This document shows, in pieces, positions 16,102-18,800 of a stretch of 64,000 bases of DNA. This stretch comes from Escherichia coli. Its GTDB lineage: Bacteria; Pseudomonadota; Gammaproteobacteria; Enterobacterales; Enterobacteriaceae. The stretch lies in assembly GCF_041248615.1 (NCBI RefSeq), contig NZ_CP158426.1, one strand, 5' to 3'. Below the pieces are notes generated by a model. That model had not been told where the DNA came from, ran no database searches, and saw only the letters and a list, made by a program, of their open reading frames with translations. Within the stretch, counting starts at the first letter, position 1, and every line of letters starts with the position of its first letter. The position numbers were made by a program, and so were the translations under genes.

Positions 16102-16344
16102 TTACCCTGAACTGACGATACAACAAAGGCGCAACGCTTTTGAGATAAAGGATCGATGCTTTCACTGCTTTTACCCTCTACCATTAGGCTAATTGCGACG
16201 AGAAAGGGACGACCTATGAATACTAACGTTTTTCGACTGCTCCTGCTGGGAAGCCTGTTCAGCCTTAGCGCCTGTGTGCAGCAAAGCGAAGTGCGACAGA
16301 TGAAACACAGCGTCAGCACGCTGAACCAGGAGATGACGCAACTC

Positions 16345-18092
16345 ATTGACATCCTCCACGCCCTGAAGGACGTGGATCCCTGCTACGTTCAGGCTGTCGC
16401 CTGAATCATTTCGGTGGGTTCCTGCTTCAACGGGCGGCCTGACTGCACCATCCCTCCACAGGCAAGAACGGCGTGCCCCGCCGCTAAAATGTTACGAGCG
16501 CCATTTACATCGGCGTTCGCTGTATATCCACATACCTGGCATCTGAATTTACTTTGTGACAGGCGATTTTCTTTCGCTGTATGACCACAGCACGTGCAAC
16601 GCTGGCTTGTGTACGCTGGCGAAACAGCAAGCACCTGACCGCCACGCCAGAGCTGCTTGTACTCAAGCTGGCGGCGCATTTCATACCAGCCCTGATCCAG
16701 TATCGAACGGTTTAAACCTGATTTTGCCCGGACATTGCGCCCCGGCTGGCTGACCGTACCCGCTGCTGACTTTGACATGTTGCTGACCTTCAAATCCTCA
16801 ATGACTATCATTGCGTGGTTTTTGCTGACGGTCGTTGTGACTTTGTGAAGGTAGTCCCTGCGGATATTTGCGATACGGGAATGCAGTCGCTGTATTTTGC
16901 GTTTCTGCTTCTGCCAGTTGTTGCTGAATTTGACCTTGCGGCTTAACTGTCGCTGAAGTCTCGCCAGCGTCTTCTGGTTTTTCTGAAAACTGTTTACAGG
17001 CTCAAAGACTGTGCCATCTGACAGCGTGGCGAGTTTAGCCACGCCAGCATCCAGCCCGACCATTGATGCTGAAGGGTGAACCGGAGTTGATACTTCACTT
17101 TCTGTCTGAATACTGATGTGCCACTTACCGCAGGACTGGCTGACCGTGACATTTTTCACAACACCCGTGACCTGACGGCTATTCCGGTAGCGCATCCAGC
17201 CCAGTTTCGGCAGAAAAATACGGCTGTTTTCCTGATCGAGCTTAACGCCCTGCGGGTAGCGGAATGCATCATTCTGTCCCCGCTTTTTGAATCGGGGAAA
17301 AGCAGCCCGCTTCTGGAAGAAGTTTTTGTAAGCCCGCTCAAGGTCTTTCAGTGACTGTTGCAATGGCTGTGACGGGGCATCTTTAAGCCATTGCGTTTCA
17401 GTGGCATTTTTCCACTCAACCAGCCAGGAAGCCATTTTCCCGTAAGGGATGTATTTATTACCGGCCTCATGATTCTCATTCTGAAGCGCCAGAGCACGAT
17501 TGAAAACGAAACGACATGCGCCTGCGAAGCGCCTCATTTCACACTCCTGTTGACCACCTGGTCTTAACTGGAATTTAAATGCCTGTAATCGTTTCACAGG
17601 TCAAATGATACTTTGGTCTATGAAAAAAGAAACCGATATCCGGCGTGGAAGGCATTGTGTTTTCCTGATGCATGTTCACCTGGTCTTTGTCACCAAATAC
17701 CGACGCCAGATTTTTGACCATGACGCGACAGAAAAACTACGCACTTACTTTTCAAATGTATGTGCTGATTTTGAAGCTGAACTGGTTGAAATGGATGGCG
17801 AACCAGATCACGTCCATTTGTTAATTAACTATCCTCCCAAACTGGCGATATCCAGTCTGGTAAACAGCCTCAAAGGCGTATCGGGTAGGTGACTGCGACG
17901 AGATCGACCAGATATTGCAGTCAGGTATTACTACAAAGGCGTTTTGTGGAGTCCTGGCTATTTTGCCAGTAGCTGCGGAGGTGCGCCAATATCCGTCATC
18001 CGCCAATACATTGAACAACAGCAAACACCTGGTCAGGTGGAAAACCGCGCCTTATATCCCCGCCCTGAAGGACGGGGTTTTACGGCGCACCG
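16345..18092 (-). mobile_element. IS200/IS605-family insertion sequence (divergent tnpA/tnpB), boundaries approximate
   Basis: HuH (Y1) transposase gene plus TnpB gene; similar subterminal hairpins near both ends (16356-16375 CCACG-CCCTGAAGGA-CGTGG; 18058-18077 CCCCG-CCCTGAAGGA-CGGGG); no terminal inverted repeats. Confidence 0.75.
16389..17597 (-). CDS. tnpB: TnpB (IS200/IS605 OrfB; RuvC-like RNA-guided nuclease family)
   Basis: 402-aa ORF; N-terminus ...AFKFQLRPG...RFVFNRAL typical of TnpB; C-terminal CxxC...CxxC zinc finger (CTCCGH...CQVCGY) and RuvC-III-like NGARNI. Confidence 0.85.
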
Positions 18093-18132
18093 GATAAAGA
18101 AACAGTCAAAATCACTCAGCAAAACAGGCTGA
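17605..18132 (+). pseudogene. tnpA: IS200-type HuH transposase TnpA with in-frame TGA at 17890-17892
   Basis: N-terminal part has HuH motif (DHVHLLI); same frame continues after the TGA with the C-terminal tyrosine region LWSPGYFASSCGGAPISVIRQYIEQQ; frame reads past the element end into yajI. Confidence 0.7.
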
Positions 18133-18800
18133 ATGCAAAATCCAGCAGTGGGGTTTACCTTCTGCCTGGAGCGAAAACACCAGCAAGACTGGAAAGCCAG
18201 ATCGGTACTTTACGTATGTCGCTGGTGAATATTACGCCTGATACAGATGGCACCACCCTGACGCTACGTATTCAGGGCGAGTCGAATGATCCCTTGCCCG
18301 CATTCAGCGGAACTGTTGAATATGGGCAAATTCAGGGAACAATAGACAACTTTCAGGAAATCAATGTGCAGAATCAATTGATTAACGCCCCTGCCAGCGT
18401 CCTCGCCCCCAGCGATGTTGATATTCCGTTACAGTTAAAGGGTATTTCTGTGGATCAGTTAGGCTTTGTACGTATCCACGACATTCAACCTGTTATGCAG
18501 TAAACGTTTCGCGGGGCGTTTTGTGCGTCCCGCAACATCTTTCCCCGTCATTTTGTTACTCTGCTTACATCACCCAGATTGATAGTAAAAGTTTGCAACA
18601 AGGGTGAAAGTCAGTACAATCCCCGCCCGAATGTGTGTAAACGTGAACGCAATCGATTACGTAAATGATAGAACTGTGAAACGAAACATATTTTTGTGAG
18701 CAATGATTTTTATAATAGGCTCCTCTGTATACGAAATATTTAGAAACGCAATTTGCGCCTTTTTCACTCCCGCAAGGGATTTTCAAACAGTGGCATACAT

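Follow-up and report, generated by a model that had tools for sequence, protein, structure and literature searches.

An IS609 copy with an interrupted transposase gene and an intact tnpB gene splits the lipoprotein gene yajI of Escherichia coli

What separates the two parts of the lipoprotein gene yajI, and what can the inserted DNA still do? The question is raised by a 64-kb stretch of Escherichia coli DNA (hereafter the window) with the gene order nrdR-yajI-tsx. The initial annotation had described yajI as split by an insert of about 1.75 kb, and this is borne out: 1748 bp lie between the two parts of a gene that starts with the ATG at 16216 and ends with the stop codon at 18501-18503. The 5' fragment carries the signal peptide and the lipobox LSAC, and its reading frame runs on into the insert up to a stop at 16402-16404.

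The junctions were fixed by comparison with an intact yajI allele. Uninterrupted YajI has 179 aa, in agreement with the proposed join of 43 and 136 codons, and the native sequence at the junction is CAACTCAATAAAGAA (..Q L N K E..), in which codon 44 is AAT (Asn). Because a join around 16345-18092, the interval given at first, produces GAT (Asp) at this codon, both junctions had to be shifted by one base, and the ends of the insert are 16346-18093 (Table 1). Excision of this interval gives back native yajI exactly, with no base gained or lost. Of 5426 complete E. coli genomes, 340 have the identical junction and 5080 an intact yajI. The insertion inactivates the gene, which represents a null allele in the source strain and, among complete E. 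coli genomes, in about 6%. RefSeq records of other strains show yajI split in the same way, together with insQ and, in an identical copy of the element, tnpA flagged “internal stop”.

The insert shares 98.3% nucleotide identity over 1748 bp with the IS609 of strain K-12 (mobile element 1503161-1504908 of NC_000913.3, comprising insQ and the pseudogene yncK), which the K-12 record labels “insertion sequence:IS609” and which has the same 1748-bp length, the same divergent layout of genes and the same TGA codon in tnpA. The boundaries are equal in both copies: the curated K-12 feature starts with CCGG directly after TTAT and ends in GTCAA, and its two termini, CCGGTGCGCC next to TTAT and GGATGTCAA at the other end, are those of the yajI copy. 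The two copies differ by 29 nucleotides and by their location, which is the ydcL-ydcO intergenic site in K-12. When seven independent sites of IS609 insertion are aligned, a conserved block is delimited, TTGACATCC...GCGCACCGG. IS609 is present in 5015 of the 5426 complete genomes, and its places number ~11,000 in all. The insert in yajI is the remnant of a mobile element, ordinary and annotated before, and is already known as a copy of IS609, with nothing new in its identity.

Table 1. Coordinates of the features of the interrupted yajI locus in the 64-kb window (LE, left end; RE, right end)
Feature	Position	Strand	Remarks
yajI 5' fragment	16216..16345	+	43 codons and base 1 of codon 44; matches intact yajI up to ...CAACTCA
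IS609 (IS200/IS605 family), 1748 bp	16346..18093	-	LE at 18093, RE at 16346
yajI 3' fragment	18094..18503	+	Last two bases of codon 44 to stop codon
tnpA pseudogene (HUH/Y1 transposase)	17605..18034	+	Equivalent K-12 remnant is yncK
In-frame TGA in tnpA	17890..17892	+	TTA (Leu) in other IS609 copies; RefSeq “internal stop”
tnpB (insQ), 402 aa, intact	16389..17597	-	RuvC D183, E267, D363; CxxC...CxxC zinc finger
Predicted ωRNA (reRNA) scaffold	16346..16510	-	Covers last ~40 codons of tnpB and entire RE
Predicted 16-nt ωRNA guide TGAGTTGCGTCATCTC	16330..16345	-	DNA flanking RE
RE subterminal imperfect palindrome	16355..16376	-	DNA fold: 9-bp stem TCCACGTCC/GGGCGTGGA, loop TTCA
LE subterminal imperfect palindrome	18058..18077	-	DNA fold: 8-bp stem CCCCGTCC/GGGCGGGG, loop TTCA
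RE terminal tetranucleotide TCAA, predicted right cleavage site	16346..16349	-	Conserved RE end
Target tetranucleotide TTAT (ATAA on plus), predicted TnpB TAM	18094..18097	-	Part of yajI, immediately 5' of LE
Predicted left guide tetranucleotide AAAA	18078..18081	-	4 nt just 5' of LE hairpin foot

The ends of the insert were then compared with each other. As first noted, terminal inverted repeats are absent: when the left end is set against the reverse-complemented right end, 7 of 40 ungapped positions agree, which is the level expected by chance. Comparison with intact yajI showed no target-site duplication at the junctions either, and a classical IS family was rejected on these two grounds. 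Subterminal hairpins had also been described, and their 20-nt sequences are located exactly at the positions first given, 16356-16375 and 18058-18077; their fold had to be revised from a 5-bp stem with a 10-nt loop to a DNA stem of 8-9 bp, with one non-Watson-Crick pair, closed by a 4-nt loop. The two imperfect palindromes have the same orientation and an irregular sixth pair, which is T·G in each (position 6 of an 8-bp core at RE). The foot of the RE palindrome lies 10 nt from the RE tip, and the LE palindrome is enclosed by an outer GCGCC/GGCGC stem (18045-18089). The minus strand gives the more stable fold of both hairpins (-14.1 versus -12.3 and -10.7 versus -9.3 kcal/mol), and their pairing is maintained in relatives by compensatory changes.

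Hairpin-forming repeats are also a property of REP/RAYT (REPtron) units, and the transposase gives a weak match to the model of REP-associated tyrosine transposases. This match is of 24 bits on NF047646 (cutoff 80), to be compared with 147 bits for the stop-repaired TnpA translation on the IS200/IS605 TnpA model NF033573 (cutoff 55), and the REP/RAYT assignment was rejected on these scores and on the presence of only two hairpin copies in the window. The 12-mer CCCTGAAGGACG common to both hairpins occurs at only those two places in the 64-kb window, where no further IS609 end or solo hairpin was found, and discrete 1748-bp boundaries of IS609 are kept at many loci, which argues against a REP-type repeat as well as against a classical IS that has inverted repeats and duplicates its target. 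The probability that the insert is another repeat or element of either kind is considered negligible. The IS200/IS605 reading is in turn supported by the HUH/Y1 homologue, TnpB, the TTAT target, the same-orientation hairpins, the lack of terminal inverted repeats and of a target duplication, and the match to IS609.

The target tetranucleotide had been expected at the left end of the insert; it is TTAT (18097-18094), which in the window lies on the right, beside LE, the active strand being the minus strand. LE is directly preceded by TTAT in K-12, at seven chromosomal sites, in two plasmid copies and at additional viral-contig sites. The lone exception is one relative (L019) with a TTAC flank, which has AAAG in the guide position. 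At the other end, RE terminates in GGAGGATGTCAA at six E. coli insertion sites and in two plasmid copies; among viral-contig copies the RE mostly ends in TCAA, with four insertions ending in GGAGGGTGTCAA and one group in TCAC.

These ends were compared with those of IS608 from Helicobacter pylori, the mechanistic model of the IS200/IS605 family, whose Y1/HUH TnpA (PDB 2A6M/2VJV) is homologous to IS609 TnpA (E 4e-20). Both elements have subterminal imperfect palindromes on one strand and a right end that stops at TCAA, its tip being 10 nt away from the foot of the hairpin. IS608 ends in TCAA, and its guide AAAG pairs with TTAC (PMC3201880). The rule of a 4-nt guide located 5' of the left hairpin, which in IS608 is AAAG for TTAC, would likewise hold in IS609 with AAAA for TTAT, and by this analogy the AAAA of the yajI copy is predicted to pair with the TTAT cleavage and target site. 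Differences concern the target itself (TTAC in IS608, TTAT in IS609), the distance from the left cleavage site to the hairpin foot (19 nt in IS608, 16 nt in the yajI copy) and the transposase, which is truncated in the yajI copy, unlike that of IS608. The tnpA and tnpB genes of the yajI copy are divergent; in the figure legend for IS608, the gene arrows are placed between LE and RE with no relative direction given (PMC3201880).

Across the window the plus strand has a negative GC skew (cumulative -0.51), indicating that the minus strand is G-rich and that the IS609 top strand corresponds in sequence to the template of the lagging strand. Members of the IS200/IS605 family are biased towards placement of the top strand on the lagging-strand template (PMC5027513), and the yajI copy is consistent with this bias, although as a single insertion it carries no statistical weight.

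The divergent tnpA and tnpB genes reported at first were both confirmed as homologues by profile searches, with tnpB on the minus and tnpA on the plus strand; tnpA, however, is broken by an in-frame TGA at a position where homologues carry a conserved Leu. The HUH motif, HVH, is retained, and the catalytic Tyr (RQYIEQQ) is encoded downstream of the stop, so that the TGA deletes the C-terminal third of TnpA with this residue. RefSeq classes the gene as a pseudogene, and its pN/pS of 0.92 corresponds to near-neutral evolution. Because of the TGA, autonomous transposition of the yajI copy is unlikely.

Could the element nevertheless be fully autonomous and currently active, able to excise and re-insert unaided? 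In favour of this, the two ends are intact, as are TTAT and tnpB, and the TGA allele was found at five or more different insertion sites. Counted over IS609 places in complete E. coli genomes, this allele occurs 3376 times versus 6359 for the Leu codon (about one third). In E. coli, termination at a UGA that precedes C is leaky, and traces of full-length, read-through TnpA are conceivable. The presence of TGA at several loci means either that TGA copies moved or that gene conversion spreads the allele; IS609 copies show strong mosaicism, the four-gamete test being failed by 260 of 465 pairs of informative sites, so gene conversion can spread it, and its distribution was rejected as proof that TGA copies move. 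“Immobile” is used here for autonomous movement only. Besides the loss of the catalytic Tyr and the near-neutral evolution of tnpA, two observations speak against present autonomous activity: the K-12 copy, which has the same TGA, gave zero new insertions in mutation-accumulation lines (PMC5009759), and in the two genomes that contain a 100% identical copy, this copy occupies the sole IS609 place in the chromosome record, with no helper seen. An autonomous, currently active element is thus regarded as quite improbable.

The tnpB gene presents a different picture. Its product scores 386 bits on the TnpB profile NF040570 (cutoff 100) and is a full-length homologue of the TnpB of ISDra2 from Deinococcus radiodurans (E 2.7e-56), with a common RuvC triad in which D183, E267 and D363 align with D191, E278 and D361 of ISDra2 TnpB. 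Among E. coli copies, the pN/pS of tnpB is 0.31, indicating purifying selection. Derivatives with tnpB only occur on E. coli plasmids bearing phage-type genes. No functional study of E. coli InsQ was found in a literature search, in which IS609 was mentioned mostly in genome surveys.

A predicted, covarying RNA structure extends across the 3' end of tnpB and RE in IS609, in the manner of an ωRNA such as that of ISDra2. Searches against Rfam gave no match at or above the gathering threshold; they gave weak, mutually consistent matches below it to HgcC, RAGATH-18 and sot0042, RNAs of tnpB 3' ends that have been linked to tnpB (PMC4615843). The consensus structure of the region has 37 pairs, with 97% of cells paired, and compensatory changes were observed at 7 pairs, as against 1-3 in slid controls, with 1 of 500 shuffles reaching 7, in a sample of related sequences and for a region that is in part also protein-coding. 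Conservation of the region remains high even in relatives at 63-68% protein identity. In ISDra2 the last ~16 nt of the reRNA derive from the flank (PMC8612924), and the TAM equals the transposase target (PMC8612924); by analogy, the guide of the yajI copy is predicted to be TGAGTTGCGTCATCTC and its TAM to be TTAT, where that of ISDra2 is TTGAT. In intact yajI, TGAGTTGCGTCATCTC lies directly 3' of TTAT, so that the predicted guide, with TTAT adjoining, would match the uninterrupted yajI allele.

Such a combination of a decayed transposase gene and a preserved nuclease gene could also be expected if the TnpB/ωRNA module had been domesticated, the transposase being lost while the host retains the nuclease or the RNA for regulation, defence or another use. 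Purifying selection on tnpB and not on tnpA, the high conservation of the ωRNA-like region and the tnpB-only plasmid derivatives would be in keeping with this. The same purifying selection is, however, predicted equally by selection at the level of the element (retention or homing); the catalytic triad is undamaged, and plain flanking sequence makes up the guide, as is usual for selfish copies; and the yajI insertion is confined to just 340 of the 5426 genomes. Domestication is accordingly judged very improbable.

The overall explanation which is very probably correct is that of an IS609 copy inserted into yajI by peel-and-paste, leaving yajI inactivated and a copy in which tnpA is dead and tnpB intact. 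“Peel-and-paste” insertion of a single strand would have occurred 3' of TTAT on the yajI antisense strand, between codons 43 and 44. The active top strand, corresponding to the window minus strand, reads from TTAT through the LE hairpin (18077-18058), tnpA (leftward) and tnpB (rightward) to the RE hairpin (16376-16355), TCAA and the flank. With its intact ends, the yajI copy could still be mobilised by a TnpA supplied in trans. The ωRNA would most likely be made from the tnpB 3' end and RE, with adjacent yajI sequence as its 3' guide, and this guide, together with the TTAT TAM, would steer TnpB cleavage to uninterrupted yajI, that is, to the donor joint left after excision. Transposition chemistry, guide-target pairing, ωRNA production and TnpB activity are those that we infer by analogy with IS608 and ISDra2.

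At the scale of the locus, yajI::IS609 is usable as a lineage marker and has little importance beyond correct annotation. The yajI copy also illustrates, as a natural case, how an RNA-guided nuclease persists once its transposase has decayed. It is possible, if rather unlikely, that the UGA allele is widespread because it is maintained in the population, in which case the yajI copy would be a live element and not a fossil. UGA copies would then be non-autonomous passengers that are still moved in trans and owe their retention to an intact TnpB/ωRNA; alternatively, the leaky UGA-C context would give a trickle of transposase and act as a built-in attenuator. The IS609 copies of E. coli form a convenient natural dataset, with many sites, TTAT as the target and one TTAC variant whose guide has changed to match, which is suited to the study of the guide-target rules of TnpA or of the TAM specificity of E. 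coli TnpB.

The insertion interrupting yajI lies in the E. coli neighbourhood nrdR-yajI-tsx. Its assignment to the IS200/IS605 family in the initial annotation was right, and the element is a copy of IS609, 98.3% identical to the K-12-type copy adjoining ydcO, whose transposase is labelled 'IS200/IS605-like element IS609 family' in some RefSeq records. Of the 5426 complete E. coli genomes, 5015 contain IS609-like DNA, at a median of two places each; among the same genomes, the window's yajI junction was present in 340 and a contiguous yajI in 5080. On a 100% identical copy (NZ_OW967178.1), RefSeq annotates two yajI (DUF3251) pseudogene fragments, insQ, and a tnpA with 'internal stop'. Because of the K-12 match, the wide distribution and this annotation of an identical copy, IS609 at yajI is considered as already known, being curated in K-12 and RefSeq-annotated at the yajI site. 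Nothing in this copy departs from known family behaviour. The truncated yajI frame (16216-16404) reads on for 19 codons within the IS, and a 62-aa yajI product retaining the signal peptide and lipobox could be made.

Features of the interrupted yajI locus and sub-gathering Rfam matches, in window coordinates
Feature	Position	Strand	Remark
ribD, nrdR		minus	first in gene order
yajI	16216-18503	plus	start to end of stop codon; interrupted
402-codon ORF (tnpB)	16389-17597	minus	between the yajI parts
Short ORF (tnpA)	from 17605 to TGA 17890-17892	plus	divergent from the 402-codon ORF
HgcC	16333-16456	minus	tnpB 3' end/RE
RAGATH-18	16419-16462	minus	tnpB 3' end/RE
sot0042	16355-16516	minus	tnpB 3' end/RE
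tsx		plus	follows yajI

Junctions were fixed by comparison with an intact yajI locus (L002, 179 aa), which reads ...GACGCAACTCAATAAAGAAACA..., coding for Q-L-N-K-E-T. Since the left flank equals intact yajI through A16345 and the right flank from A18094, the insert occupies 16346-18093 (1748 bp), and this comparison revealed neither duplication nor loss at the insertion site. The insertion first placed at 16345-18092 is thus real, and its length and the frame of the rejoined gene hold, but its position was one base off on both sides, and the join then taken as native yajI yields GAT (Asp) where the native codon is AAT (Asn). Two independent checks agree with the junctions 16346/18093: an alignment of copies at seven chromosomal sites (yajI, yfeD, yedK, a tetR-family gene, yeaQ, yfaV and ydcO), in which the block conserved across copies starts with TTGACATCC (16346) and ends with ...GCGCACCGG (18093), and the curated K-12 MG1655 feature 'insertion sequence:IS609', of 1748 bp, which runs from CCGGTGCGCC, directly preceded by TTAT, to GGATGTCAA.

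At all seven chromosomal sites, ATAA (TTAT on the minus strand) stands directly beyond the window-right end of the element, and the TTAT flank is also found at two plasmid copies, at further viral-contig sites and in K-12. As TTAT belongs to native yajI, it is the target and lies outside the element; its place beside the window-right end therefore gives a minus-strand layout in which TTAT is followed by the left end (LE), the right end (RE) terminates in TCAA, and tnpB is directed toward RE. Terminal inverted repeats are absent, as had been claimed, the element ends matching at 7/40. The plus strand has a negative GC skew across nearly the whole window, so that the top strand has the sequence of the lagging-strand template. 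The lagging-strand-template orientation is preferred by the IS200/IS605 family (PMC5027513), and the orientation of the yajI copy is consistent with this preference, a single insertion being no test of bias.

The two 20-nt hairpin sequences quoted in the initial annotation are exactly at 16356-16375 and 18058-18077, and the 12-mer common to both, CCCTGAAGGACG, occurs at these two places only within the 64-kb window. Their shape was refined to stems of 8-9 bp (CCCCGTCC/GGGCGGGG and TCCACGTCC/GGGCGTGGA) that are irregular at the sixth pair and closed by the loop TTCA. Folded as single-stranded DNA, the LE hairpin gave -14.1 kcal/mol on the minus strand vs -12.3 on the plus strand, and the RE hairpin -10.7 vs -9.3; in both, the minus strand has a T·G pair where the plus strand has a C·A mismatch. 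An outer stem GCGCC...GGCGC (18045-18089) encloses the LE hairpin, RE being without one. Pair-breaking substitutions in the RE hairpin (equivalent to 16368-16373; e.g. CGAGG for CGTGG, or GAATGA for GAAGGA) occur in chromosomal copies L003, L004, L006 and L007, and the RE hairpin of the window's copy has the consensus form, fully paired. Within the last ~60 nt of the element in the more distant relatives L050-L053 and L019 (63-75% TnpB identity), a longer RE hairpin, CCCCCTCC...GGTGGGGG, carries an inner stem, with the irregular sixth pair and the identical terminus GGAGGATGTCAA retained. The E. coli plasmid copies L011 (2150-2235) and L012 (2150-2245), on plasmids carrying phage-type genes (head processing protein and lysozyme beside L012), are tnpB-only derivatives with tnpA deleted, LE some 20-80 nt away from the start of tnpB, and the TTAT flank and conserved RE retained.

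In IS608 of Helicobacter pylori, the left cleavage/target site TTAC lies on the 5' side of the left hairpin at a distance of 19 nt, and the right site TCAA on the 3' side of the right hairpin at 10 nt; a 4-nt guide immediately 5' of each hairpin foot (left guide AAAG) recognises the corresponding site (PMC3201880). The right end of the yajI copy likewise terminates in TCAA, at a distance of 10 nt from the foot of its hairpin; unlike IS608, this copy has TTAT as left site, with 16 nt between site and hairpin foot, and the 4 nt preceding the left hairpin are AAAA instead of AAAG. We infer that AAAA/TTAT would obey the same position-by-position rule as AAAG/TTAC. This rule is supported by apparent natural guide-target covariation in L019 (1102-1160), where AAAG at the guide position accompanies a TTAC flank as in IS608; the other copies compared have the AAAA guide in all but L020 and the TTAT flank in all, L020 included. 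In L020 (1116-1160), TTATAT replaces GTAAAA before the left hairpin, yet the flank is TTAT; this misfits the simple rule and may reflect a defective end.

Both tnpA and tnpB are present and divergent, as originally described, with tnpB intact, but tnpA is broken by the TGA, past which its frame reopens. Translated with Leu at this stop, tnpA yields a product that scored 147 bits on the IS200/IS605 transposase model (cutoff 55) and aligned with solved TnpA structures including that of IS608; the HUH motif (HVH) lies upstream of the TGA and the catalytic-tyrosine helix (RQYIEQQ) downstream. Because homologues have Leu at this position and other IS609 copies TTA, the TGA is a derived nonsense mutation by which the catalytic residue is lost. 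The K-12 copy has the same TGA, and no new IS609 insertions were found in mutation-accumulation lines (PMC5009759). The 100% identical copy occurs in two genomes, and in the chromosome record of both it is the only IS609 place, so that no helper copy was seen there. The tnpA frame past the TGA (17944-18132) has no stop inside the element, traverses the LE hairpin and exits into yajI, which means that a full-length TnpA would have a C-terminal tail differing between insertion sites; L006 has a TAG immediately after ...QQQTPG in this frame.

Alleles were counted in the complete E. coli genomes using 55-nt probes with the polymorphic base at their centre, so that a match can be seeded by the corresponding allele alone: TGA was found at 3376 places in 2728 genomes, and TTA at 6359 places in 3896 genomes. 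TGA occurs at at least five insertion sites (yajI, yfeD, yedK, the tetR-family site and ydcO, K-12's copy included), and the tetR-family site is represented by two copies, one with TGA and the other with TTA. In an alignment of the window's copy (16346-18093) with chromosomal copies L003-L010, the four-gamete test failed for 260 of the 465 informative-site pairs, and two yajI copies differ at 24/1747 positions, whereas their flanks differ at 3/799. These patterns suggest gene conversion between IS609 copies; given the strong mosaicism and the copy/flank contrast, such conversion would thus be enough to explain the spread of the TGA allele, trans-mobilisation and read-through being possible alternatives.

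Against the RNA-guided TnpB model (cutoff 100), the 402-aa TnpB scored 386 bits, and it aligned over its full length with TnpB of ISDra2 from Deinococcus radiodurans (E 2.7e-56), with D183, E267 and D363 opposite the catalytic D191, E278 and D361, and a CxxC...CxxC zinc finger present. Among eight E. coli chromosomal copies, pN/pS was 0.31 for tnpB and 0.92 for tnpA, rough values as pairwise sums are not independent and tnpA changes are few; the ratios suggest that tnpB is under selection and that tnpA is drifting.

At the tnpB 3' end and RE, where an ωRNA is predicted, Rfam searched with permissive settings yielded three mutually overlapping matches, all below gathering scores (HgcC, RAGATH-18, sot0042); a published study associates HgcC and the sot RNAs with tnpB 3' ends (PMC4615843). 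From 51 related viral-contig loci (63-98% protein identity), the final 165 nt of the element, in 24 distinct versions, were aligned, giving a consensus structure of 37 pairs with 97% of cells paired. Compensatory double changes were found in seven pairs (in the RE hairpin, a short stem past the tnpB stop, and stems within the coding region), compared with 1-3 compensatory pairs and 40-50% pairing in slid controls, and of 500 column shuffles a single one attained seven; these figures come from related sequences, in a region that is partly protein-coding. In ISDra2, flanking DNA supplies the last 16 nt or so of the RNA, and the target-adjacent motif (TAM) of its TnpB is the transposase target (PMC8612924). 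By analogy, the guide in the predicted ωRNA of the yajI copy would be TGAGTTGCGTCATCTC (16345-16330, minus strand), with TTAT as TAM, a combination that corresponds exactly to the uninterrupted yajI allele, TTAT followed directly by TGAGTTG....
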